Virus record (IMG/VR): IMGVR_UViG_3300050821_010639 | Location: 1-64,000 of that record | From: a virus | Strand: one strand, 5' to 3' | DNA: 64,000 bases | Shown: positions 3,266-22,526 of the stretch, piece after piece | Position numbering within the stretch: the first letter of the stretch is position 1 | Layout: every line of letters starts with the position of its first letter | The notes under the pieces: model-generated | The model's database searches: none | Told to the model about the DNA's origin: nothing | The model's input: the letters and a program-made list of their open reading frames with translations, nothing else | Translations under genes and position numbers: made by a program

Positions 3266-3305
3266 CTTAACTTGAGTCTAATGCACTTCCTTGACAAGAG
3301 TCAAG
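3266..3305 (-). promoter_or_regulatory. Promoter (TTGACT-18-TAGACT) with CTTGAC-N4-GTCAAG palindrome
   Basis: CTTGACAAGAGTCAAG at 3290-3305, degenerate second copy at 3266-3281, upstream of the TROVE-like gene. Confidence 0.6.
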
Positions 3306-3316
3306 GAAAGAACTTA

Positions 3317-3333
3317 CCACAGCGTGAGCATCG
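3317..3333 (-). repeat. tRNA-array trailer, complement of leader at 8318-8334
   Basis: + CCACAGCGTGAGCATCG is the exact reverse complement of + CGATGCTCACGCTGTGG at 8318-8334. Confidence 0.85.
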
Positions 3334-3337
3334 AAGG

Positions 3338-3411
3338 CGGCCCTGGCTGGATTCGAACCAGCGGTACCTCGCTTAGGGGGCGAGTGCTCTGTCCGGCTGA
3401 GCTACAGGGTC
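3338..3411 (-). tRNA. tRNA-Arg(CCT)
   Basis: Cloverleaf; anticodon loop CC-CCT-AA (C33). Confidence 0.85.
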
Positions 3412-3412
3412 A

Positions 3413-3487
3413 TGGAGGCGGAACGGAGAATCGAACTCCGGTTGCGCGTTTTGCAGGCGCGCGCCTATGCCACTCGGCCATACCGCC
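3413..3487 (-). tRNA. tRNA-Cys(GCA)
   Basis: Cloverleaf; loop CT-GCA-AA; encoded CCA. Confidence 0.9.
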
Positions 3488-3499
3488 ATTGAACTTGCG

Positions 3500-3573
3500 T
3501 GGTCTCAGAGGGACTCGAACCCCCGCCAACCCGCCTCCGGAGGGCGGTGCTCTGTCCACTGAGCTATGAGACC
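3500..3573 (-). tRNA. tRNA-Arg(CCG)
   Basis: Cloverleaf; loop CT-CCG-GA. Confidence 0.9.
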
Positions 3574-3574
3574 T

Positions 3575-3660
3575 TGGAGGCGCGTGCAGGATTCGAACCT
3601 GCGAAGGATCTACCGGCCGCTTTACAGGCGGCTGCCGTTGGCCACTTGAGCTAACGCGCC
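3575..3660 (-). tRNA. tRNA-Tyr(GTA)
   Basis: Cloverleaf with long variable arm; loop CT-GTA-AA; CCA. Confidence 0.9.
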
Positions 3661-3661
3661 A

Positions 3662-3737
3662 TGGGGTAAGTAACGGGGCTCGAACCCGCCCGCCTGGGAC
3701 CACAACCCAGTGCTCTGCCGTCTGAGCTATACCTACC
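3662..3737 (-). tRNA. tRNA-His(GTG)
   Basis: Cloverleaf; loop TT-GTG-GT; G-1; CCA. Confidence 0.9.
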
Positions 3738-3743
3738 ACGAGA

Positions 3744-4106
3744 CTAATCCGGCAGAACGAGATTCAAGACCTCGAACGCTGCACGGATCTGCCCTTGCCG
3801 CCGAGAGCCCAGATGCGGGTACAGGACCCGCATAAGTGCCTCAGCGTCAGCTTTCCTGTTGACGAAAAACCGCCAGTACGGCTTCCGGTTCGACTGAGTG
3901 CGGGCGGTGTAGGGGCCTCCAACAGTCCCCACGCCTGACCACGCATGCAGCTTACGGATGACGTCCTCGTCGGTCATATTGCACTCGATGCGTAGCTGGA
4001 CGTACTCCTTCTTGCGCCCACCGCAACCCGCCTTACGGCGGTTGATGCCGAAGTGACCCTCACCTTCGAGAACTCCGACCACCCACATCAACTTTGCGTT
4101 GTCCAT
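3744..4106 (-). CDS. Free-standing single-motif LAGLIDADG homing endonuclease
   Basis: N-terminal WVVGVLEGEGHF motif, NMTDEDVI, LYPHL..RRQ.QI; lower GC than flanks. Confidence 0.8.
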   Translation of the reverse strand: MDNAKLMWVVGVLEGEGHFGINRRKAGCGGRKKEYVQLRIECNMTDEDVIRKLHAWSGVGTVGGPYTARTQSNRKPYWRFFVNRKADAEALMRVLYPHLGSRRQGQIRAAFEVLNLVLPD

Positions 4107-4119
4107 GTCAACTACTACG

Positions 4120-4194
4120 TGGTCGATGAGGGATTCGAACCCCCGACAGCCCGCTGTGTGAAAGCGGCGCTCTACCAGGCTGAGCTAAACGACC
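4120..4194 (-). tRNA. tRNA-Val(CAC)
   Basis: Cloverleaf; loop TT-CAC-AC. Confidence 0.9.
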
Positions 4195-4205
4195 TCGTAC
4201 TTGCG

Positions 4206-4278
4206 TGCCCCCCGGGAGACTCGAACTCCCACCCTCCCGGTTCGTAGCCGGACGCTCTATCCGTTGCGCTAGAGGGGC
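4206..4278 (-). tRNA. tRNA-Arg(ACG)
   Basis: Cloverleaf; loop CT-ACG-AA. Confidence 0.9.
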
Positions 4279-4291
4279 ATTGGGTCTTGCG

Positions 4292-4363
4292 TGGGCGAGG
4301 CAGGGATCGAACCTGCGGCCTCTTCCGTGTCGGGGAAACGCGCTTCCGCTGCGCTACACGCCC
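4292..4363 (-). tRNA. tRNA-Val(GAC)
   Basis: Cloverleaf; loop CC-GAC-AC (C33). Confidence 0.85.
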
Positions 4364-4369
4364 AAGTTT

Positions 4370-4398
4370 GTTGACGCCGGTCAAGCAACGGGTACCGT
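4370..4398 (+). promoter_or_regulatory. Palindromic operator/promoter (TTGACG...TACCGT) for two antisense micro-ORFs
   Basis: GTTGACGCCGGTCAAG at 4370-4385; -10-like TACCGT 6 nt before GTG at 4405. Confidence 0.5.
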
Positions 4399-4404
4399 TA
4401 GGTC

Positions 4405-4545
4405 GTGGGATTTTTCATCGGCCTCGGCATCGGCCTCGCAGTCGGCGGCTTCTACGGCCTCAGGTGGGGCGGCGTCCGTGCCTTCTACCGACTCGGCCGG
4501 TACGAGCACACTGAGCGCATGCGCCGCTCCGGGCTCGGCAACTGA
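4405..4545 (+). CDS. Small membrane protein (46 aa)
   Basis: MGFFIGLGIGLAVGGFYGLRWGGVRAFYRLGRYEHTERMRRSGLGN; high GC3; TGATG coupling to next ORF. Confidence 0.65.
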   Translation: MGFFIGLGIGLAVGGFYGLRWGGVRAFYRLGRYEHTERMRRSGLGN

Positions 4546-4706
4546 TGAAGCGGGGTTCGGCCTTCTTCATCATCGGCGCCGTCATCGGCCTTGGCGTCAG
4601 CGTCACGCTGGACGCAACCGGGCTGCACTGGCTGACCTGGCCTATTGCCGGACTGTTCGCACTAGCCGCCCTGGCCATCACCGTCACTATGCGTAAGCGC
4701 TCCTGA
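4545..4706 (+). CDS. Small two-TM membrane protein (53 aa)
   Basis: MKRGSAFFIIGAVIGLGVSVTLDATGLHWLTWPIAGLFALAALAITVTMRKRS. Confidence 0.65.
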   Translation: MKRGSAFFIIGAVIGLGVSVTLDATGLHWLTWPIAGLFALAALAITVTMRKRS

Positions 4707-4773
4707 CGGGATTCGAACCCGCGATTTTCTGCTTGACGGGCAGACGGGGACGGCCTGACTCCCCTACAGGTGC
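4698..4773 (-). tRNA. tRNA-Asp(GTC)
   Basis: Cloverleaf; loop CC-GTC-AA (C33). Confidence 0.85.
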
Positions 4774-4785
4774 ATGTGTACTGCG

Positions 4786-4858
4786 CTCCGGCAACTGGGA
4801 TCGAACCAGTGCGCTTCCGCTTAACGGGCGGCTGCTCTGCCGTCTGAGCTATGCCGGA
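4786..4858 (-). tRNA. tRNA-Asn(GTT)
   Basis: Cloverleaf; loop CC-GTT-AA (C33). Confidence 0.85.
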
Positions 4859-4863
4859 TCGAT

Positions 4864-4940
4864 TGGAGCCCCCGTCAGGCTACGTACCTGACACTCATCG
4901 CCCGCCACGCGGCGGGCGAGTCCCCTGCGCGGGAGGGGGC
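4864..4940 (-). ncRNA. Atypical tRNA-like RNA ending in CCA
   Basis: GCCCCC...GGGGGC-U-CCA acceptor with three hairpins, T-like loop UACGUAG, no standard anticodon loop. Confidence 0.45.
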
Positions 4941-4943
4941 GCA

Positions 4944-4991
4944 GTTGCGGAGTATGAGTCCAGCGGGGACACCGAACTCCCCCACTCCGCA
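4944..4991 (-). pseudogene. Internally deleted tRNA-Met(CAT)-like remnant
   Basis: UGCGGAG-D arm-CUGGA-CUCAUA joined directly to CUCCGCAAC; 3' anticodon strand and T arm missing. Confidence 0.5.
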
Positions 4992-5022
4992 TCGTGCCTC
5001 CAGGGTAACCCGGAGGTCTTCG

Positions 5023-5095
5023 CTCCCCCAACGGGATTCGAACCCGTGCTCTCGCCTTGAAAGGACGGCGACCTCGGCCGCTAGTCGATAGGGGC
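5023..5095 (-). tRNA. tRNA-Glu(TTC)
   Basis: Cloverleaf; loop CT-TTC-AA. Confidence 0.85.
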
Positions 5096-5100
5096 TTGCG

Positions 5101-5175
5101 TGGTCCTGGCGGGCTTTGAACCCGCGTCACCGACTTGAGAGGCCGGCGTCCTGAGCCTGACTAGACGACAGGACC
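5101..5175 (-). tRNA. tRNA-Glu(CTC)
   Basis: Cloverleaf; loop CT-CTC-AA. Confidence 0.9.
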
Positions 5176-5186
5176 GTGTTCTTGCG

Positions 5187-5259
5187 TGTACCAGGCGGGG
5201 ATCGAACCCGCGGCCGACTGCTTAGAAGGCAGCTGCTCCTTCCGCTGAGCTACTGGCAC
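5187..5259 (-). tRNA. tRNA-Arg(TCT)
   Basis: Cloverleaf; loop CT-TCT-AA. Confidence 0.9.
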
Positions 5260-5263
5260 CCGG

Positions 5264-5335
5264 TGCCTCCCGAAGGGGTCGAACCCTCATCCCATGGCTT
5301 AAAAGGCCCGGATGCTCCCGTTGCACCAGAGAGGC
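5264..5335 (-). tRNA. tRNA-Lys(TTT)
   Basis: Cloverleaf, imperfect anticodon stem; loop CT-TTT-AA. Confidence 0.8.
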
Positions 5336-5336
5336 T

Positions 5337-5415
5337 TGGTAGCGCGGGTGGGATTCGAACCCACGTACGGCAGGTTATGAGTCTGCTGCTTGAAACCTGA
5401 CTCAGCTACCGCGCC
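5337..5415 (-). tRNA. tRNA-Met(CAT) (elongator; Ile2 not excluded)
   Basis: Cloverleaf; loop CT-CAT-AA; CCA. Confidence 0.85.
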
Positions 5416-5416
5416 G

Positions 5417-5492
5417 TGGGTCCAGGTGGATTTGAACCACCGCGTCTTCCGGTTATCAGCCGGATGCCTTCACCAGACTTGGCCACAGACCC
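5417..5492 (-). tRNA. tRNA-Ile(GAT)
   Basis: Cloverleaf; loop CT-GAT-AA. Confidence 0.9.
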
Positions 5493-5631
5493 ATGTGACT
5501 CGACAGCAACAAGTAACTGTGTGTATGCTGTCGAGTGCTCGTAGTAATGAAACTGCGTGCACCGTCGTTCGACGGCAGGCAGAGTTGAGGCGGTTCCTTC
5601 AGCGGCCCGAGGGGACCGCCTCAGTCATGCC

Positions 5632-5718
5632 TGGAGGAGACGGTGGGATTCGAACCCACGGGGCCGTAACCCGCTGGTTTTCGGGACCAGAGCCTTAATC
5701 CACTCGTGCCACGTCTCC
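5632..5718 (-). tRNA. tRNA-Ser(CGA)
   Basis: Long variable arm; loop CC-CGA-AA (C33); CCA. Confidence 0.85.
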
Positions 5719-5722
5719 AGAG

Positions 5723-5808
5723 AGGAGCGAGCGGGATTCGAACCCGCGGAGGTGTTACCCCCGCCGCGCTAGCAACGCGGTGCCATAAGCCTCTCGTGCC
5801 ATCGCTCC
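5723..5808 (-). tRNA. tRNA-Ser(GCT)
   Basis: Long variable arm; loop TT-GCT-AG. Confidence 0.9.
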
Positions 5809-5812
5809 AGAG

Positions 5813-5893
5813 TGGGCGGGGAGGGAGTCGAACCCTCACGTCCGAGGACACACGGGCCTGAACCGTGCGCGGCTGCCATTACGCCACTCGCCC
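5813..5893 (-). tRNA. tRNA-Leu(CAG)
   Basis: Long variable arm; loop TT-CAG-GC. Confidence 0.9.
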
Positions 5894-6059
5894 TTGCTCC
5901 CCGGGCTGTTCTCCCTTTGCTGGGCCAGGCCCGGGGGGCTGGCAGGGAGCCAGGTCAGCGCTCTCGCGATGAGCTTCCCGGCCGGTGCACCGGCCAGTCT
6001 GCCTGGAGGTTGTCTGGGGTCCCCTCTTGGGCGCGTCCGCCCGCCAGTTCACCCCATAG

Positions 6060-6131
6060 AGCCGACGACGGGATTCGAACCCGCGACCTTCACCTTGGCA
6101 AGGTGGCGTGCTACCGCTGCACTACGTCGAC
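6060..6131 (-). tRNA. tRNA-Gly(GCC)
   Basis: Cloverleaf; loop TT-GCC-AA. Confidence 0.9.
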
Positions 6132-6132
6132 A

Positions 6133-6209
6133 TGGAGCCGGCACGCGGGGTCGAACCGCGGGCCTCGCCCTTACCGAGGGCGCGCTCTAACCGCCTGAGC
6201 TATACCGGC
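6133..6209 (-). tRNA. tRNA-Thr(GGT)
   Basis: Cloverleaf; loop TC-GGT-AA (C33); CCA. Confidence 0.85.
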
Positions 6210-6210
6210 A

Positions 6211-6286
6211 TGGTTCCGGGGGCTGGGCTCGAACCAGCGTGCCCCGGCTTCAAGGGCCGGGCGGGATGCCGTCAACCCACCCCGGA
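6211..6286 (-). tRNA. tRNA-Gln(TTG)
   Basis: Cloverleaf; loop CC-TTG-AA (C33); CCA. Confidence 0.8.
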
Positions 6287-6357
6287 TCGGGCACCGGACT
6301 TGAACCGATCACCCGCTGCTTACAAGGCAGCCGCTCTGCCAGATGAGCTAGCCCGGC
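6286..6357 (-). tRNA. tRNA-Thr(TGT)
   Basis: Cloverleaf; loop CT-TGT-AA; 3' end abuts or overlaps the next tRNA. Confidence 0.8.
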
Positions 6358-6361
6358 GAAG

Positions 6362-6446
6362 TGTCCGAGGCGGGACTTGAACCCGCAGCGCCCGTAGCGG
6401 GCACCAGCACCTCAAGCTGGCGCGTCTGCCATTTCGCCACACGGAC
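6362..6446 (-). tRNA. tRNA-Leu(GAG)
   Basis: Long variable arm; loop TT-GAG-GT. Confidence 0.9.
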
Positions 6447-6574
6447 AAGTAGGAAGACCCGGAGACCGGACCCTGACGCGCACCAGGGCGGCTGCCCTCG
6501 CTCCGCCTCCGTCACTGCCCTGCGCGGGACAGCTTCCAGCGGCGAGTCTCCTGGGGATGTCGCACGTTTTCCCG

Positions 6575-6647
6575 AGCCCCGAACCGGCATCGAACCGATG
6601 ACCTCGCCATTACGGGTGGCGCGCTCTGCCATCTGAGCTACCGGGGC
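6575..6647 (-). tRNA. tRNA-Thr(CGT)
   Basis: Cloverleaf; loop CC-CGT-AA (C33). Confidence 0.85.
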
Positions 6648-6680
6648 ATAAGGCCGCCTGCGCAAGCGCTGACAGCCACG

Positions 6681-6756
6681 CTGCGGTACCTGGGATCGAA
6701 CCAGGGTGACTCCGGGTTCAGGGCCCGGCGAGTTTGCCAGCGTCCTCCATACCGCA
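6681..6756 (-). tRNA. tRNA-Gln(CTG)
   Basis: Cloverleaf; loop CC-CTG-AA (C33). Confidence 0.8.
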
Positions 6757-6853
6757 TCGTTGCCGGGGCTCTTTGCTGGCCCCGGATTAACGGACCTGTT
6801 CCTCCCGCAGAGGGGACCGGGCAAGGATTCGCAGGACGGCCTTGCCAGCCGCG

Positions 6854-6930
6854 TAGGCGAGGCGGGACTCGAACCCGCAGGAAGGCACGGATTTTGAGGC
6901 CGCCGCATATACCGGTTCTGCTACTCGCCC
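6854..6930 (-). tRNA. tRNA-Leu(CAA)
   Basis: Cloverleaf with short variable region; loop CT-CAA-AA. Confidence 0.8.
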
Positions 6931-7012
6931 AAGAAGAGGAGGCGGGCCCGCTGACAGCAGGAGACCTGTACGTCGTTGTCAGCCACGGGCGCGGTCTCCG
7001 GACCGCCTCCAG

Positions 7013-7085
7013 TACGCCGCCCGGGACTCGAACCCGGAACCCCCTGATTAAGAGTCAGGTGCAGTGACCATTGTGCTAGCGACGC
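7013..7085 (-). tRNA. tRNA-Lys(CTT)
   Basis: Cloverleaf; loop CT-CTT-AA. Confidence 0.9.
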
Positions 7086-7187
7086 ATAACCAGGCTCGCG
7101 GGCTCAGTGTCAGCTGTCCCGCCCCGCCTGGCCGCGGTCTGACAACCGCTTGCGCGACCCGCGGATTAGCGGTCCGCGTCCGCACCG

Positions 7188-7259
7188 AGGGGATGACGGG
7201 AATCGAACCCGCATCTGCTGATTGGAAGTCAGTCATCCTTGCCGTTGGACGACATCCCC
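7188..7259 (-). tRNA. tRNA-Gly(TCC)
   Basis: Cloverleaf; loop CT-TCC-AA. Confidence 0.9.
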
Positions 7260-7463
7260 ATGTCCCGAGGCCCCGCCGGTCCAGAGCAAGGTACGACCCG
7301 CTTGCAGCAGGTCTCCCAGGGTGCCGGCGACGTTATGAGGTGCCTCGGGCGGCGCGAAGTCCGGCCCATTGCAATGGGCCGGCTTACCCGGAGGAGCGCT
7401 ACTCTCCGGGCCGTATCCCCCCGGGTAGCCTATGGCTGGGCAGCCGGGCGGGGCGTCGTGCCG

Positions 7464-7539
7464 TGGTGGCTGCGGAGGCGATCGAATCCTCGACCTGTCC
7501 CTTTTCAGGGGACCGCTCTCCCAACTGAGCTACACAGCC
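7464..7539 (-). tRNA. tRNA-Phe(GAA)
   Basis: Cloverleaf; loop CT-GAA-AA; CCA. Confidence 0.85.
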
Positions 7540-7550
7540 ATGAACTTACG

Positions 7551-7622
7551 TCGGGACACAGGGACTCGGACCCCGTCTGCCTGCTCCCAAAACAGGCGCG
7601 CTAACCCTTACGCGATATCCCG
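7551..7622 (-). tRNA. tRNA-Pro(TGG)
   Basis: Cloverleaf; loop TT-TGG-GA; T loop variant TCCGAGT. Confidence 0.8.
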
Positions 7623-7630
7623 TTGTTTCC

Positions 7631-7705
7631 GCAGGTGTCTTAACCAGGCCTAGACGATCCCGCCCCAACCGGGACAGGGGCGGGACTTGAACCCGCTTCT
7701 CCTGC
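7631..7705 (-). ncRNA. Circularly permuted anticodon-less tRNA mimic 1
   Basis: GCAGG-T arm(GCGGG UUCAAGU CCCGC)-closed acceptor hairpin-D arm(GUCU..AGAC)-CCUGC. Confidence 0.7.
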
Positions 7706-7784
7706 TGGTCGGGGTGGTGAGATTCGAACTCACGACCTCTGCGTCCCGAACGCAGCGCGCTCGACCAAGCTGCGCTACACCCCG
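7706..7784 (-). tRNA. tRNA-Pro(CGG)
   Basis: Cloverleaf; loop TT-CGG-GA; CCA. Confidence 0.9.
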
Positions 7785-7788
7785 AAAC

Positions 7789-7856
7789 CCGGCGCTCTTC
7801 CGTTGAGCTACCTGGCCCACGAGTGGACCCGGCAGGAGTCGAACCTGATCTACCGG
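7789..7856 (-). ncRNA. Circularly permuted anticodon-less tRNA mimic 2
   Basis: CCGG-T arm(CAGG UUCGACU CCUG)-closed acceptor-UA-GCUC AACGGAA GAGC-G-CCGG. Confidence 0.7.
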
Positions 7857-7858
7857 TG

Positions 7859-7932
7859 TGGAGAAGATCGGATTTGAACCGACGACACCCCGGTTGCGGG
7901 CCGGGTGCTCTTCCGGGCTGAGCTACATCCCC
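7859..7932 (-). tRNA. tRNA-Ala(CGC)
   Basis: Cloverleaf with G3:U70; loop CC-CGC-AA (C33). Confidence 0.85.
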
Positions 7933-7937
7933 ATGTT

Positions 7938-8015
7938 CAGGAAAGGTGTCCTGCCGTTAAACGAGCCGGGCGGATAAGCCCGGCCTCCCGAGTCGAACGG
8001 GAGACCCATTTCCTG
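7938..8015 (-). ncRNA. Circularly permuted anticodon-less tRNA mimic 3
   Basis: CAGGAAA-T arm(CUCCCG UUCGACU CGGGAG)-GCCGGGC UUAUCC GCCCGGC-D arm-UUUCCUG. Confidence 0.7.
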
Positions 8016-8017
8016 CG

Positions 8018-8090
8018 TGGAGCCTGCGGGACTTGAACCCGCGACCTTTTGCATGCCATGCAAACGCGCTTCCAGCTGCGCCAAGGCCCC
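8018..8090 (-). tRNA. tRNA-Ala(GGC)
   Basis: Cloverleaf with G3:U70; loop AT-GGC-AT. Confidence 0.9.
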
Positions 8091-8317
8091 GTGGAGGCCG
8101 GCCCCTTGCCCGGTGTGAACAGGCGGAAGGCCGGCCATCGCCCCCGTGGCCCTGGCAGAAGCACTCCGCACCAGGGCGTCAGGGAGTCTAGCTGGCACAG
8201 TGCCCGGTACAGGAACGTCTTGCGACGCCCCCAGCCTTTAACGGCTGCTGCTCCCCGGGAGTAGCTGCATTGTCTTTCACCGTGCCGAAAACTCGCGGCG
8301 GGTTGGCGCCCGCCGCA

Positions 8318-8388
8318 CGATGCTCACGCTGTGGAGTTCTCAAGATTCATTGACTTGCGCCGCCGTTGGCTTTCGCCGCGGGCGGCGG
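8318..8388 (-). promoter_or_regulatory. rrn-like leader: GAAA hairpin (boxB-like), boxA-like UCUUGAGAACUC and processing-stem 5' strand
   Basis: Minus strand GGC-GAAA-GCC hairpin then GAAUCUUGAGAACUCCACAGCGUGAGCAUCG, resembling actinobacterial 16S leaders (CUUGAGAACUCAACAGCGUG). Confidence 0.65.
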
Positions 8389-8391
8389 TCG

Positions 8392-8466
8392 CAGGGGAGG
8401 AGGGATTCGAACCCGCGCTGGCGTGGTTTTGGAGACCACCGCTCTGACCTTCTGAGCTACACCCCT
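8392..8466 (-). tRNA. tRNA-Trp(CCA)
   Basis: Cloverleaf; loop CT-CCA-AA; first tRNA of the array. Confidence 0.9.
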
Positions 8467-8485
8467 ATGTTCAGTTGTCTCACTG

Positions 8486-8519
8486 AAAAACCGCCCTGCC
8501 GAGAGTCTCGGGGGCGGTC
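8486..8519 (-). terminator. Intrinsic terminator (attenuator) upstream of the tRNA array
   Basis: GACCGCCCCCGAG-ACU-CUCGG-CA-GGGCGG-UUUUU. Confidence 0.75.
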
Positions 8520-8538
8520 TGCTGGTGCAGGTTGGCCG

Positions 8539-8655
8539 CTACACAACGACCGCCTTGTTCGTCGGGATGCAGTTGTCTTCGGGCAGCGTGGCGGCTGCGG
8601 GGGCGTGGAAGTACCACCCTCGGAGCTGCTGCTTGCTCGGTGACCTTGACATCAT
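8539..8655 (-). CDS. 38-aa leader peptide containing all 20 amino acids
   Basis: MMSRSPSKQQLRGWYFHAPAAATLPEDNCIPTNKAVVV*; its 3' end forms an antiterminator with the terminator 5' arm. Confidence 0.7.
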   Translation of the reverse strand: MMSRSPSKQQLRGWYFHAPAAATLPEDNCIPTNKAVVV

Positions 8656-8723
8656 GGTCCTCACGGTAGCGGAGCGGGCCTTCCCGCGCCAGTTCTTTGC
8701 GCCCCCGGAGGGGCCATGTCTCC

Positions 8724-8753
8724 AAGGTACTACCCTGCTTGACTGGTGTCAAG
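8724..8753 (-). promoter_or_regulatory. Sigma70-type promoter TTGACA-17-TACCTT overlapping palindrome CTTGACTGGTGTCAAG
   Basis: -35 at 8747-8752, -10 at 8724-8729. Confidence 0.7.
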
Positions 8754-9030
8754 CTAAATCCAGGGGGATTTCTGGCTGGGTAAAGAAGCTGGTCACAGCC
8801 CCGCTGGCCACCCCGCTACGGTCGGCGTCCACCGCCCGGCGCACGGCCGGGTGCATGGACGCGCGGATCTCGACCGGGCTCAGCCGCACCAGCCTGGCGG
8901 CCACCATCGCGTCGGCCAGGCGCTCGGGGAAGGTCCCGGCGCGCGCAGCCAGGTGACCCATGTCCTCCTGGAGGTCTTCCTCGGTGAGGCTGGCCGCGTA
9001 CTCAACCAGGACCTCGAACGGGACGCTCAC
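8749..9030 (-). CDS. Hypothetical protein
   Basis: GTG start with GGAG RBS (MSVPFEVLVEY...). Confidence 0.6.
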   Translation of the reverse strand: MSVPFEVLVEYAASLTEEDLQEDMGHLAARAGTFPERLADAMVAARLVRLSPVEIRASMHPAVRRAVDADRSGVASGAVTSFFTQPEIPLDLA

Positions 9031-9172
9031 CGTTTTTCTCCGTACAGTCTCGTTCGGAATCGTTCGCGAGGGCGACAGCACGCCGCCGACACGGCACACT
9101 GGAAGTGCCTCGTCTGGAGCACGGATGGGCGGACGGTAATGCGGAGGGGCCGGGATGCAGCCTGGCCCCTCT

Positions 9173-11140
9173 TTACTGTGTGTAGTCCCCGCTCATCGTG
9201 CCCCAGTCGTCCAGGTAGCTGCTGCCGTACTCCATGCCGGGGCGGTCGGGGGGCATGAACTGGTCGGGGCCGAGCGCCGACATGCCGGCCGGCATCCCCG
9301 CCGGAAGGGGAATCTCGGCGGCCGGGCCGTAGAACGAGATCTGGCCGGGGTAGGCCCGCTTGCCGGCCGGGTCCTCCATGCCGCCGATGCTCAGCGCGCC
9401 GACCACCGCGCCGGCGAGGCTGTCGGCCTCGTCCTTGGAGGAGTCTCCCAGGTGGTCGATCTTCCCGTTGGGCAAACGGGACAGGCCGAGCAGCTCGATG
9501 ACGGTCAGCTCGCGGGCGGGCATCTCCAGGCGGCCCTCGTACATGACGTCGCGCAGCGTCCTCCAGCCCTCCTCAGAGACATCTGTAGAAAACCTGTCCG
9601 TCTCAATGCCGTGGCTTTCGAGTATTTGCATACTATCTTTCGATTGCCATTGATCAAATGAGAAGAACGTCACCGGGAAGCCCATCCGGCGCAGCTCCAG
9701 GCACAGCATGCGCGCCCAGCGGATCTGGATCTCCATCGGGGGCCGCGCGCCGGCGTCAGCCTCGTAGCTGATGGTGAAGTCGACCTTGACGACCGGGCGG
9801 CGCTCCTGCACCTTGATCTCCAGGCCGTCCTCGTCGTTGCCGGTCAGCGCGTGGTCCTGCCAGCGCTTGACGTGCGCCATGGTAATGCCGGCGCGGTCGC
9901 CGGTAGCCGCCAGGTCGGCGTGCATGGCGTAGAGCGCGCCCTTGACCGGGTAGCACTCGGGGCTGAAGGTGTAGACCGGCTTCCAGGACGCGCCCTCGCG
10001 GATGTAGCTCACCGCCAGGGGCGGCTGGGCGTACTCGGTCAGGCACTCGCGGATGGCTTCCTCGTTGGCGAAGTACGGGTTGATCGCCCGGCGGGGCTTG
10101 CACTCGTACTTGGCCTCGGCCAGCGCCGGGTCCTTCTCGTAGTCCTCGGCGAACGCCTCCTTACCGGAGATGCGCGGGTTGGCCTCCCAGGTGGCCAGCG
10201 GGCCGGACACGTAGTACCGGCTCTTCTCGCCGCGTGCCTCGTTGTCCGCCTTGCCCCTGGCGACCAGCTGCTGGATGGTGCTGCCCAGGTAGCGCGGGTA
10301 GGAGATGTGGACGTTCTTAAAGCACTCGGGGAACCGGGTGGTGGCCGAGGTCCGGATCATGTCGAGGATGGCCTCGGCGCTGCTGCTCGACTCACGCTGC
10401 TTGGCGGAGGAGTTACGGGCCAGCTCGGCCGCGGACCGGAACGCGTCGATCTCGTCGGCGATGCCGAGGATGAGGTTGAGGCCCTCCTGGCTGTCGGCGT
10501 CGGAGTGACCGGAGACGGCCTCGATGTTGTGCTCGAACCGGATGGTGTCCAGCAGGGTGACAGTGCGCTCCCCGCGGGCGCTGCGCTGCTGACGGGCGGA
10601 GGCGTCCAGGATGTCGATGCCGGCGTTGCGCTGGAACCAGCAGCCCGACCGCTGCACGGCGCGGCGCATCGGGGCGAAGAACGCGCGCTGGGCTTGCTTC
10701 GACGATGATGCGACATTCAGGACGTGGATCGAGTCCTGTTCGGGCATCTGGTAGTAATCCTGCGGGGACTTCAGGCACAGCAACAGGTAGCAGACCCGCA
10801 TGGCGATCATCCGGCAGGTGTGGTCCTTGCCCCCGCCCTTGCCCCACTCCAGCTCCAGGAAGTTGACCATGCGGCACGGCGCCGACCAGTAGTCGCGCAC
10901 CTTCTTGTCCGCGCTGGCCGCCAGCAGCTCGTAGGTCGGCAGGTAGAAGACACGCTCGGCGTGCCGCACCGCCTCGTACTGCACGTCTGACAGCGGCGGG
11001 TTGGCCAGGTAGGCCCGGTCCCGCACGAACACGTCAAGCGGGACCGGCTCCTCCTCGAAGATGCCAGTCCCGCTCGCCGACGTCCCCGTGCCGCCGGACC
11101 GCCCAAGCAGGGCCGCGGCGGCTGCGCCAGCAGTGGCCAC
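9173..11140 (-). CDS. Phage terminase large subunit
   Basis: Walker A WGKGGGKD, Walker B LGIADEID, RNase H-like nuclease HADLA..GD, FDQWQS, KIDH...SKDEADS. Confidence 0.85.
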   Translation of the reverse strand: MATAGAAAAALLGRSGGTGTSASGTGIFEEEPVPLDVFVRDRAYLANPPLSDVQYEAVRHAERVFYLPTYELLAASADKKVRDYWSAPCRMVNFLELEWGKGGGKDHTCRMIAMRVCYLLLCLKSPQDYYQMPEQDSIHVLNVASSSKQAQRAFFAPMRRAVQRSGCWFQRNAGIDILDASARQQRSARGERTVTLLDTIRFEHNIEAVSGHSDADSQEGLNLILGIADEIDAFRSAAELARNSSAKQRESSSSAEAILDMIRTSATTRFPECFKNVHISYPRYLGSTIQQLVARGKADNEARGEKSRYYVSGPLATWEANPRISGKEAFAEDYEKDPALAEAKYECKPRRAINPYFANEEAIRECLTEYAQPPLAVSYIREGASWKPVYTFSPECYPVKGALYAMHADLAATGDRAGITMAHVKRWQDHALTGNDEDGLEIKVQERRPVVKVDFTISYEADAGARPPMEIQIRWARMLCLELRRMGFPVTFFSFDQWQSKDSMQILESHGIETDRFSTDVSEEGWRTLRDVMYEGRLEMPARELTVIELLGLSRLPNGKIDHLGDSSKDEADSLAGAVVGALSIGGMEDPAGKRAYPGQISFYGPAAEIPLPAGMPAGMSALGPDQFMPPDRPGMEYGSSYLDDWGTMSGDYTQ

Positions 11141-19091: not shown

Positions 19092-19327
19092 TCGGGTCTC
19101 CTCATGCTGATGGTGGTCGCGATAACCGGGGGGCCGGGCTCCGGCCCGGTCACGGGCAGGCCCGCCGCGCAGAACGCGCCCGAGCTGAGCTTGCGGTGGC
19201 CGAACTCGCCGCCGCACTCCGGGCAGGCGAGGTACGTGACGTCGCCGTCCTGCTCAGGCTCAGCGGGGCCGCCGCAGTAGATGCAGTCGGCGCCCTCTTC
19301 GACCAGCGGCTCAGGCGGGCTGCTCAA
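19088..19327 (-). CDS. Small zinc-ribbon protein
   Basis: CIYCGG...CPECGG; start codon uncertain. Confidence 0.5.
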   Translation of the reverse strand: MSSPPEPLVEEGADCIYCGGPAEPEQDGDVTYLACPECGGEFGHRKLSSGAFCAAGLPVTGPEPGPPVIATTISMRRPE

Positions 19328-22300
19328 CGGGCTCCAGGACCTCCGGGGCGGGCTCTTCGGCATAGCCGTCGCCCGCCCAGTTCTCGTCAGGCGCGGTGTC
19401 CGGGCTGGTGCCGAAGGACTGGCCGTACTGATGCGTCTTGCCGAATCCGGGACTTTCCACAGGTTCCTCCACAAGGTGTGCGGCTACCTGTAATACGCCG
19501 GAGCCCGCGAGCGCCGCAATGACCTTCCCTTCGGCCTCGTCGCCACAGCGCGGGCAGAACCTCATCCCCCAGGGCGCGTCCAGCAGAGTGGAGGGGACCG
19601 GCAGGCCGCACCCCTCGCACGGCTGGCCGCCGCCGTGGAAGAACTCCAGCCGACGGGCGGTGTAGCGCGCGGCCTCGACCGGGCTGGCCTTGCCGGCGAG
19701 CGCGGCGTAGGCCTGGTAGGGACCGAGGCGGCCCTTGAGCAGCATGCGCAGCACGGTCCGCTGCCCCTCGCGGGCCAGCCAGAGGTCGCGGACGTGCTCG
19801 CGGGCGTCGCCCTCCTCGGCGGTCGCCCCGGCGTAGAAGCTCTCCGCGCGAATCAGCACCGGCACTGCCTCTGCCTCGTCCCACCACCGCAGCCGCCGGG
19901 CCAGGGCCGCGGGGTCGTCAGCTACCTCCAGCTCCCACAGGCCGGTCGGGCGCGCGGGGAACTTCCCCGCGGCCGGGAGCACAGCGAAGTTCCCGCCCCA
20001 GCGCAGGTACGGGTACAGGTGCACCGCCATCTTGATGAGGTAGTCGCCGATGTCGAGGCCGTCGGCGACGCGGGTCAGGCCGAACTCGGCGTAGTCCACC
20101 CCGGCGCTGCGCTCGCGGTAGCCGGTGCCCGAGGACGCCAGCCTCACCGACTCCACGGCCAGGTCGGGGAACGGCGGCCGGCCGGACCTGCTCATCCGCC
20201 CGGCGATGTCAGCCCGTGCCCGGTAGGCGGCCCGGCGGATGATGTACTCCAGCGACGTGCCGGAAACGAACCGGTACTCATCCGGGCGCTCCACCTTCAT
20301 CCGGACGCGCTGCGCGACGGTGGACTGGTCGAGCGGGCGCACCGGCTCAGCGACCAGGTCGCGGTCGACGGCCTGCACGTACCTGCGGCGCAACTCCAGG
20401 TCCTTCCGGTCGCACACCCCGCAAGCGGTCCCGCTGCACTGCTGGTCGCAGCGCGGCACCCACTCATTGCCGTGATATCCCTCGGGGATATCACTGTCGT
20501 AGCCCTCGGCGGTGGTCCCCTCCAGGAACTCCACCATGTCCCGGTACACCCGCCACAGCAGGGACCGCGGCACGCCGGTGTCGATCATCTCCCAGCCGAG
20601 CAGGTCCTCGTAGAACCGCTCGCCGAAGATGTCGTCCAGCCCGTTGCGGAACCCGTGAACTTTCATCGCCTCATCGAGCTTTTCCCGCATGTCCTTCGGG
20701 AAGCCGCCCCACGACGCGGTGCCGTAAGCCTCGATGACGTCCACGACGGCCTCGCCGACGTCCCGGCTCGCCCGCTGGCACGCTTGGAAGAACGCCAGCT
20801 TCGGCGGGGAGGCCTTGCTGCCGATCTTGATCCAGATCCGGTGATCGCGAAGTTCGCCGAGCGCCTGCTGCAGCATGTAGTCCGGCGGGGTGACCTCGAA
20901 CCACTGCAGCGGAGTCTGCGCCTCGATGAGCAGCGGGGTCCAGGAGAAGATGATCTGCACCCCGGCCGCGGCCTCGCCGAACCCGTTGCGGATGTCGGCC
21001 AGCCGGCGGCCCAGCTCCACGACCCTCATCACGTCGGCTTGCTCCTCACCGGGCCAGTTGGTGATGAAGTAGAGCTTGATCTTCCTGATGCCCGCGCGGA
21101 TCGCCCGGGTGACCGCCTCGGCCACGTCGTCGTCACTGGTGCCCTTGCCGGCCAGGTCGCGCATCCGCTGGCTGTTGCCCTCCAGGCCGAGAGTGAGCGA
21201 CGTCGTGCCGGAGACTTGCAGCAGCAGGGCGAAGCCGGGGTCGGCGAGGTAGTCATCGATCCGCATCGAAGAGGCGTCCACCCGGCCGGCGACGTTCTCC
21301 AGCAACCCGGCGATCAATGCCTTCTTTCGCGTGTGCATGGGCGGGTCCGGGGCGACCAGGCTGATGTCGGTCGAGCCCATATTGTCCCGCCACGCCTTGG
21401 CCCGCTCCACTGAGCGGCCTGTGCCCTCCTGCCGGTAAGGCTTGGTCACCCACGAGAGCCTGCAGAAGCTGCACCAGGCCGGGCAGCCGCGCGCTACCTC
21501 AACGTCCCCCGAGCCCATGCCGGGATCGGAGAACAGCACCGGCGCGCTGGTCATCAGGCTGGCCTTGTTCAGGTCAGCGACGCGCCGGGCCTTGAAGATC
21601 GGGCCGATGCCCTCAGCCAGACTCCGGTAACCGGACACCATCTTGGTCAGCTCGGGCAACCCGCGGTCCTCGTACTTGTAAGCGACCTCAGTGAAACGCG
21701 GGAAGTACAGGAAGGGAAACTCCCTGGCCAGCATCTGGTAACACCACAGCCGGTCATTCTGCCAGGACCGCGGGCCATTGCTCTTGAACTGCGCGATGCG
21801 CTCACAGACTGCGGAGATGCCGGGGTTGCCCTCCTCGTCCTCGGCCTCTCCCAGCCACACGGCATCGACCACCGGGGCCATGAACTCGGGCGCGCAGTAC
21901 GCCTGGCCGCCAACCAGCACCATCGGGTAGTCCTCGGCGCGCAGCGTCCGGTCGGCCCAGCGCAGCGGGATACCGCTCATGGAGAGGGTCTTGCAGAAGT
22001 TCATGAAAAGAACTGTGTACGAGATAGACGTGCCCACCACGTCGAAGTCGCTCAGCTGGTGCCTGCTCTCGATGCCGAACGCCGGCACCTGGCCGCGCTC
22101 CAGCAGGTCCATGTCACGCGGGGTGGCGGGCAGGTAAAAACGGTCAGCGAGCGTGTAAACCCCGGCCTTGTGCAGCGCGTCGTACACAGCGGGGATCGCC
22201 ATGTTGCCGGCCGCCTGACTGTAGGGCCAGCTCGCGACGAGCAGCCAGCGCACCTGGGCGGCACCCCACGGGCGGCGGGCGGCGTTGGGCTCGGTGCCCA

Positions 22301-22379
22301 AGAACTGCTGCGGTCCGTCAAAGCGGAACAGGTTTCCGTCTAGCCACCGGGCAATCGACTCAGGACTGCGGCCTGTCAT
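19311..22379 (-). CDS. B12-binding-type radical SAM protein (TIGR03960-like) with C-terminal extension
   Basis: EVARGCPAWCSFC (CxxxCxxC), LSDFDVVG, EGNSQRMR, KLYFI, TPLQW. Confidence 0.85.
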   Translation of the reverse strand: MTGRSPESIARWLDGNLFRFDGPQQFLGTEPNAARRPWGAAQVRWLLVASWPYSQAAGNMAIPAVYDALHKAGVYTLADRFYLPATPRDMDLLERGQVPAFGIESRHQLSDFDVVGTSISYTVLFMNFCKTLSMSGIPLRWADRTLRAEDYPMVLVGGQAYCAPEFMAPVVDAVWLGEAEDEEGNPGISAVCERIAQFKSNGPRSWQNDRLWCYQMLAREFPFLYFPRFTEVAYKYEDRGLPELTKMVSGYRSLAEGIGPIFKARRVADLNKASLMTSAPVLFSDPGMGSGDVEVARGCPAWCSFCRLSWVTKPYRQEGTGRSVERAKAWRDNMGSTDISLVAPDPPMHTRKKALIAGLLENVAGRVDASSMRIDDYLADPGFALLLQVSGTTSLTLGLEGNSQRMRDLAGKGTSDDDVAEAVTRAIRAGIRKIKLYFITNWPGEEQADVMRVVELGRRLADIRNGFGEAAAGVQIIFSWTPLLIEAQTPLQWFEVTPPDYMLQQALGELRDHRIWIKIGSKASPPKLAFFQACQRASRDVGEAVVDVIEAYGTASWGGFPKDMREKLDEAMKVHGFRNGLDDIFGERFYEDLLGWEMIDTGVPRSLLWRVYRDMVEFLEGTTAEGYDSDIPEGYHGNEWVPRCDQQCSGTACGVCDRKDLELRRRYVQAVDRDLVAEPVRPLDQSTVAQRVRMKVERPDEYRFVSGTSLEYIIRRAAYRARADIAGRMSRSGRPPFPDLAVESVRLASSGTGYRERSAGVDYAEFGLTRVADGLDIGDYLIKMAVHLYPYLRWGGNFAVLPAAGKFPARPTGLWELEVADDPAALARRLRWWDEAEAVPVLIRAESFYAGATAEEGDAREHVRDLWLAREGQRTVLRMLLKGRLGPYQAYAALAGKASPVEAARYTARRLEFFHGGGQPCEGCGLPVPSTLLDAPWGMRFCPRCGDEAEGKVIAALAGSGVLQVAAHLVEEPVESPGFGKTHQYGQSFGTSPDTAPDENWAGDGYAEEPAPEVLEPVEQPA

Positions 22380-22526
22380 CGGGCCTCCTCCGGAGGTGTA
22401 CCACCGGGCGCGTGCCCTCTTCGGCCTCACGCCGGACACGGCGGGCCAGCTCCTCGGGAACCGGGACCCTCGCCACCCTGCGGTACCGGGTAGCTGCCCG
22501 GTGCTCGCGGAACCTCCACCAGCGCC

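Follow-up and report, generated by a model that had tools for sequence, protein, structure and literature searches.

A candidate ribosome-mediated attenuator with near-complete amino-acid coverage in front of the tRNA array of a high-G+C soil phage

In attenuation of the trp, his and thr type, the stalling of a ribosome on a translated leader frees an antiterminator. The tRNA sets carried by phages have been explained by codon usage, by the replacement of degraded host tRNAs, and by escape from tRNA-cleaving defences. In the whiB7/wblC upstream ORF (uORF) of Actinobacteria, efficient translation leads to termination and stalling leads to read-through (PMC10274678; Lee, Lee and Roe 2022, cited there). 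This uORF, which in M. smegmatis holds 19 of the 20 amino acids, senses depletion of the amino acids it contains; a single Trp codon is enough, and a uORF deprived of that codon no longer responds to Trp starvation (PMC10274678). In addition, no transcript is induced more strongly than whiB7 upon cleavage of a tRNA by the VapC5 toxin (PMC10287673). This precedent indicates that one codon can suffice, and that in Actinobacteria such a switch can be set off by the loss of a tRNA.

Here we describe a locus in a high-G+C soil phage at which a short ORF and two competing hairpins precede a large tRNA array. The window, the whole stretch of DNA that was analysed, covers the opening 64 kb of an IMG/VR virus record that is 152,046 bp long and rated complete; its G+C content is about 69% and its genes run on the minus strand. 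We think it reasonably probable that the locus is a ribosome-mediated leader-peptide attenuator that gates the array according to how well nearly every amino acid can be decoded; the phage would then probably produce its tRNAs only when decoding runs into trouble. An original prediction made from this sequence, that of a pan-amino-acid attenuator gating the array, gains support from a conserved cassette, a conserved reading frame, a maintained peptide composition and a switch that can be modelled. The surroundings of the leader are as follows.

9173-11140, minus strand: terminase-like gene (phrog_17415), upstream of the leader
8749-9099, minus strand: 116-codon ORF between the terminase-like gene and the leader
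8467-8481, minus strand: conserved box GACAACU-AACAU between terminator and tRNA-Trp, found in nearly all relatives
8466-8391, minus strand: tRNA-Trp, first gene of the array
3336-8466, minus strand: 35-tRNA array covering all 20 amino acids, downstream of the terminator

Judged by terminase, the closest isolated phage is Microbacterium phage Magritte (47%), followed by phages of Streptomyces and Gordonia (about 30%), so an actinobacterial host is likely. A search with the terminase returned 13 distinct contigs (TerL 74-93% identical) with the same cassette ahead of the same array; promoter, Shine-Dalgarno (SD) sequence, ORF, antiterminator, terminator and tRNAs are kept in 13/13. Further lineages were added by a profile search of 1.84 billion proteins, which yielded 10 representative leader peptides, all of this family; four of the loci encoding these library peptides show the same synteny of terminase, small ORF, leader, terminator and tRNA-Trp. 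Altogether the cassette is present in the phage and about 20 relatives, whose contigs are designated by L-numbers below. Homologous arrays that retain the terminator but lack the ORF or its composition had been feared as a counter-case, and the 13 contigs instead keep all of these. Of two isolated actinophages examined, neither has an analogous leader: Magritte lacks an array after its terminase, and Streptomyces phage Satis has only 92 nt between a gene and its Trp-first array.

The phage and its relatives carry 33-37 tRNA genes, with gene order unchanged and 19-20 amino acids covered in the relatives' arrays. Unusual tRNAs were called by ARAGORN in these relatives (including L082, at G001:C1:88100-96500): SeC(tca) occurs in the L002 phage where others have Met(cat), and His(atg), Ser(aga) and Ile(tat) are also found, while the arrays of L004 and L007 are without a called tRNA-Tyr. 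Within the array of the phage itself, a 120-codon ORF (3744-4106, minus strand) resembles LAGLIDADG endonucleases, though weakly (E = 0.0018, short of the Pfam cut-off). In L004, a 130-codon ORF (L004:6519-6911) with an HNH-endonuclease-like Cys/His pattern, judged by eye, is inserted between terminator and tRNA-Trp; there the GACAACU-AACAU box remains beside the terminator, split from tRNA-Trp by the inserted gene. This box may be a 5' processing signal. Elsewhere in the window, a 1042-codon protein with radical SAM and Radical_SAM_N2 domains (19311-22439, minus strand) represents unusual phage cargo; lying 11 kb from the leader, its gene is therefore not linked to it.

Transcription of the leader would start from a promoter of the form TTGACA-17-TACCTT, which had been proposed earlier and is present upstream, followed by a 5' UTR and an SD-led ORF.

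8738-8753, minus strand: palindrome CTTGAC-N4-GTCAAG, including the -35 TTGACA
8752-8747, minus strand: -35 element TTGACA, inside the palindrome
8729-8724, minus strand: -10 hexamer TACCTT, after a 17-nt spacer
8656-8718, minus strand: 5' UTR of about 62 nt with local hairpins
8662-8658, minus strand: Shine-Dalgarno sequence GAGGA, 5 nt ahead of the second ATG (8652)
8655-8539, minus strand: leader ORF, 38 codons from ATG 8655 or 37 from ATG 8652, with all 20 amino acids
8575-8644, minus strand: P1, a long imperfect hairpin at about codons 3-27 of the leader ORF
8541-8539, minus strand: leader stop codon TAG

The palindrome occurs nine times in the 64-kb window (at 3290, 4370, 8738, 33297, 45418, 47716, 59719, 61555 and 63755) against 0.1 copies expected, and most copies are followed at promoter spacing by TAnnnT on the minus strand. 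The copy upstream of the leader is kept in 13/13 homologs, in a variant form in L078, and the -10 position reads TAnnnT in all 13. We regard the palindrome as probably a phage-wide promoter/operator motif, an early promoter combined with an operator. One copy (4370-4385) adjoins tRNA-Val within the array without a -10 element and could be an operator or a relic.

The UTR varies in length among homologs, the distance from -35 to ATG being 72-153 nt. A leaderless start from a TACCGT element had been considered possible, and this idea is not borne out by the relatives: an SD-like AGGAG, GAGGA or GGGAG lies 5 nt ahead of the second start codon in 13/13, and in L050 the first ATG is replaced by ATC. 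Because the first ATG is lost in L050 and the SD is conserved in all relatives, the SD-led second codon is the consistent start, and ATG 8652, giving 37 codons, is the probable true one.

An indication that the leader is read by ribosomes comes from its pattern of length change. Distances between successive anchors (the start, an internal CGA, CUGCC and GGYGG) are 27/24/21, 36/33/30/27 and 38/35/32/29 nt, with all steps being multiples of three, and GGYGG stands 13 nt from the stop in 13/13. By an estimate from these distances, with three or more changes counted for every segment, the frame has come through at least 10 changes of length, each by a multiple of three; the chance of at least 10 in-frame changes in a non-coding RNA is estimated at roughly 1e-5. 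Since lengths change only by multiples of three and the SD and start codon are kept, the leader ORF appears to be translated.

These observations bear on the possibility that the leader is a structured non-coding RNA, acting in tRNA-precursor processing or stability or in the binding of polymerase or another protein, with its open frame a by-product of high G+C. We consider this quite unlikely. Open frames are indeed common at 69% G+C, P1 is a strong conserved hairpin, and the leader shows no more synonymous change than TerL does; but a non-coding RNA would not account for in-frame length changes in three separate segments, for the retention of SD, start codon and stop position, or for selection on the composition of the peptide (below), and ORFs in the other frames of the region show no conservation among relatives. 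Moreover, an Rfam cmscan of 8300-9200 at E-values up to 10 returned only tRNAs and chance-level matches, with no leader family, T-box or Ms1/6S RNA; direct tRNA sensing of the T-box kind and an Ms1-like RNA were rejected as candidates for want of Rfam support.

While the frame is kept, the peptide sequence is not. Pairwise dN/dS for the leader is 0.7-1.8, compared with 0.12-0.45 for TerL in the same genome pairs, and a ratio near 1 implies that the peptide sequence is free, with amino-acid replacements seemingly as unconstrained as synonymous changes, which argues against a conserved micro-protein. An alternative of that kind would combine a functional micro-protein with an ordinary terminator of the small gene or of the upstream late operon, the tRNAs being expressed from other promoters or through a leaky terminator. 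Profile searches do recognise the peptides as a family (the 10 library matches), and a few columns are conserved, such as G, L-P and E. These columns, however, coincide with RNA pairing segments in P1 and the antiterminator; the stop lies in its fixed 13-nt register with the RNA arm that competes with the terminator; a ratio near 1 is unlike that of a folded or binding peptide; and the phage promoter motif has no further copy between the terminator and the head of the array. A micro-protein is in our judgement very unlikely. As a separate candidate, a RiPP precursor was rejected, given the 11-kb distance of the radical SAM gene and the leader dN/dS of about 1.

What the leader does conserve is its amino-acid alphabet. 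That the 38-codon frame at 8655-8539 contains every amino acid, as first reported, is borne out by its conceptual translation. The probability of finding all 20 residues in 38 amino acids is about 1e-3 given the phage amino-acid composition and 8e-4 for real 38-residue windows of phage proteins, figures that supply the chance estimate called for at the outset; none of 123 six-frame ORFs of 30-40 amino acids in the window has more than 17 distinct residues. The composition is flat, with most residues occurring one to three times and rare ones exactly once, and lacks the tandem-codon enrichment typical of leader-peptide attenuators. Leader codons are not enriched for those matching phage tRNA anticodons (86% are phage-read, versus 94% in phage genes), and the codon adaptation index falls in the lowest 10-17% of gene windows, a weak signal with a null gene set contaminated by wrong-frame ORFs.

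Near-complete coverage recurs throughout the family. The 23 leader peptides contain 17-20 distinct residues in 30-39 amino acids, seven having all 20 and eleven having 19. In 16 non-redundant peptides, no two of which reach 85% identity, distinct residues number 19.12 on average, versus 17.22±0.22 after shuffling within alignment columns, where the maximum was 18.06 and 0/20,000 shuffles reached the observed value; a smaller test with 10 peptides gave 19.0 versus 16.98±0.30. W and H are single-copy in 16/16 peptides, each in five different alignment columns, C is single-copy in 14/16 across six columns, and I and D in 15/16; overall, single-copy W, H, C, I and D are spread over four to six different columns, so that a rare residue lost at one leader site is regained at another. 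When conserved columns were fixed and the rest redrawn, P ranged from 1e-4 to 0.14 per lineage, with the lowest values in the most divergent lineages. Neutral drift from a 20-residue ancestor would retain all 20 with a probability of 3.5% at 60% identity, and at least 19 with a probability of 0.4-1.6% at 25-45% identity. The leader sequences are related, so these composition P-values are not independent; even so, at least six separate lineages show the signal. Some leaders fall short of full coverage, Y or T being absent from several, and residues missing from leaders do not correspond to tRNAs missing from the relatives' arrays. Coverage is also less significant without the last nine codons than for the whole peptide (P = 7e-4 to 0.23).

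Taken together, these comparisons suggest that selection keeps the composition of the leader and not its sequence, retaining the reading frame and the amino-acid alphabet. If so, this is an unusual form of selection on a coding sequence, in which frame and alphabet are held while the sequence itself is free. The homologous arrays to which the original prediction had directed attention keep the ORF, the antiterminator register and near-complete coverage while the peptide sequence drifts.

Composition also weighs on a further alternative, that what the leader reports is the capacity for translation in general, be it through ribosome supply, initiation, antibiotics or elongation rate, and not individual amino acids or tRNAs, with its even composition being incidental. 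Such a sensor would have the same architecture as one that senses amino acids, uORFs of the whiB7 and toiL type do respond to general translation stress, and the leader has one codon per amino acid without tandem codons. We nevertheless find it unlikely, as it leaves unexplained both the coverage of 19-20 residues despite sequence drift and the single-copy W, H, C, I and D, which shift yet are not lost.

Inside the ORF, P1 is a conserved hairpin that had gone unmentioned in the earlier description of the locus. It is a single hairpin with the same architecture in 13/13 contigs, and its stem sequences differ between lineages. Z-scores range from -1.2 to -5.3 in the 10 sequences tested, and in 6/10 of these none of 200 shuffles was as stable. 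P1 was documented sequence by sequence; RNAalifold, run on MAFFT or codon alignments, finds the antiterminator and not P1, as indels misalign the latter. By analogy with known leaders P1 may be a pausing, synchronising or insulating hairpin: like the trp 1:2 hairpin it may pause polymerase until a ribosome has begun translating, or it may prevent interference of the leader with the antiterminator.

Downstream of P1, the end of the ORF enters a pair of alternative structures.

8539-8554, minus strand: antiterminator 5' arm, comprising the last five sense codons and the stop
8513-8530, minus strand: antiterminator 3' arm, of which 8519-8513 doubles as the terminator 5' arm
8489-8519, minus strand: terminator hairpin, -20.8 kcal/mol, with a G+C-rich core stem at 8517-8491
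8486-8490, minus strand: U5 tract after the terminator hairpin

The intrinsic terminator postulated after the leader is thus recovered in the predicted fold together with its U5 tract. The antiterminator hairpin (-24.2 kcal/mol) takes 7 nt of the terminator 5' arm, and because of this overlap, which is 7-9 nt across homologs, the two hairpins are mutually exclusive, again in agreement with what had been proposed. Both are kept in 13/13 contigs, at -20 to -30 kcal/mol for the antiterminator and -21 to -28 kcal/mol for the terminator, and the antiterminator helix is the RNAalifold consensus structure. Pairing is retained in 96.7% of antiterminator cells and 93.5% of terminator cells, compared with 26-63% and 36-61%, respectively, in slid controls. 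Covariation is thin, with one double-changed pair per helix and other pairs either invariant or changed on one side, so the helices appear to be supported by conserved pairing more than by covariation. A run of four to six U follows the terminator in 9/13 homologs, and L050 has a U-rich tract; the distant relatives L017, L018 and L078 have CUCUC in its place.

Folding models describe how a ribosome might act on this switch. For a transcript ending before the terminator 3' arm, the antiterminator is predicted to form with a probability of about 1 unless the ribosomal A site is within the last 8-9 codons. In RNA truncated just ahead of the U-tract, the two states are separated by 0.3-6 kcal/mol in 11/12 homologs modelled; the exception is L007, in which the terminator state is predicted to be 14 kcal/mol more stable. 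With a ribosome modelled at the stop, the probability of the terminator is at least 0.93 in 12/12 homologs. In the full transcript at equilibrium, the terminator is predicted to be favoured at every ribosome position, and kinetic trapping of the antiterminator must therefore be assumed; the decision is likewise kinetic in other attenuators. In L089/L090 a local hairpin competes with the antiterminator. A conserved anti-antiterminator was not found among the homologs, and an entirely untranslated leader is accordingly predicted to give read-through.

The placement of residues is consistent with this geometry. Single-copy residues are under-represented in the last eight codons of the peptides (17 observed versus 35 expected), leaving some 16-19 amino acids where a stall could be sensed. 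Val, and often Ile at the boundary, is confined to these last eight codons, the masked tail, where a stall should go unsensed according to the model; Val is thus usually not sensed, much as had been suspected when Val codons were first seen to lie only inside the antiterminator.

The sequence therefore holds an ORF led by a ribosome-binding site between promoter and tRNAs, a terminator hairpin, and an antiterminator that, by modelling, a ribosome could mask, and the attenuator that we favour would work as follows. Host RNA polymerase would initiate at the promoter (8752-8724), and a ribosome would load at the SD and translate the leader of about 37 codons, with close to one codon per amino acid. 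Were decoding smooth, the ribosome reaching the stop would cover the last five codons, which form the antiterminator 5' arm; with the antiterminator masked, the terminator 20 nt downstream would fold and transcription would stop before tRNA-Trp. Were the ribosome to stall for want of a charged tRNA within about the first three quarters of the leader, or fail to load, the antiterminator would form first and hold the terminator 5' arm, and polymerase would read into the 35 tRNA genes. New phage tRNAs could then restore decoding and shut the switch again, a negative feedback. We infer termination at this site, its relief by stalling, the role of P1 and the physiological trigger, the last being starvation, tRNA loss during infection, or host tRNA nucleases.

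More tentatively, and as a possibility on which we would not yet insist, the leader may serve as a self-test of decoding, in which loss of any single tRNA species would call up a full replacement set from a self-regulating array. The loss could arise from host anticodon nucleases, toxin tRNases, tRNA decay during infection, or starvation.

Structure beyond the leader bears on whether the array is made as one transcript. An inverted repeat of 17 nt, perfectly matched (8334-8318, minus strand, and 3317-3333, plus strand), brackets 34 of the 35 tRNAs, leaving tRNA-Trp outside, and its 5' copy sits in a strongly conserved block after tRNA-Trp in the relatives. The repeat looks like a leader-trailer processing stem of the kind found in rRNA operons, and suggests that the 34 bracketed tRNAs derive from one long precursor.

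If the proposed attenuator is real, a sensor that turns on the array only at decoding failure would provide a direct regulatory logic for large phage tRNA sets, and attenuation, known for amino-acid and resistance genes, would reach the tRNA genes as well. A part this compact (about 37 codons) and able to signal a shortage of any amino acid or tRNA would also suit biosensors in high-G+C bacteria. The statement that no described attenuator samples all amino acids has to be qualified, since the whiB7 uORF, with 19/20, is a partial precedent; it holds for the target, in that we found no paper in the literature describing an attenuator in front of tRNA genes or arrays.

The whiB7 system shares with the phage leader a promoter-proximal uORF of diverse composition, a Rho-independent terminator and an antiterminator, as well as a host phylum that matches the one suggested for the phage by its nearest isolated relatives. 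It differs in controlling a transcription factor where the phage leader controls tRNA genes, and its uORF has more codons, a surplus of Ala and a coverage that changes from species to species, whereas the phage leader has 30-39 codons and a nearly flat, one-of-each composition, with Ala occurring 2-6 times per peptide, close to the 13% of the phage proteome. The leader is also phage-encoded and without sequence homology to the whiB7 uORF. By analogy, then, it would work like whiB7-type attenuators without being a member of the group.

Classical leaders (trpL, hisL, leuL, thrL and pheL, with ilvGMEDA and thr being multivalent) resemble the phage leader in having a short translated leader, mutually exclusive antiterminator and terminator, a ribosome that at the stop masks the antiterminator 5' strand, and a hairpin in or beside the coding region that is a potential pause hairpin. 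Unlike them, the phage leader has no tandem runs of regulatory codons, is predicted to read through and not super-attenuate when untranslated, regulates tRNAs, and matches no Rfam leader family. A single codon for each amino acid also makes for a weaker response than the tandem codons of those leaders.

Antibiotic-sensing leaders (ermC/erm, ARE-ABCF and E. coli toiL; PMC12121999) are similar in that a ribosome stalled on a uORF switches downstream expression in answer to general translation trouble. They require particular arrest peptides or drug-specific stall sites, however, and many act through translation or Rho, whereas the phage peptide is free in sequence (dN/dS about 1) and kept in composition alone. 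Relative to the known attenuators, then, what appears to be new at this locus is a tRNA array as the target, a phage origin, and a compact leader with a selected, near one-of-each composition.
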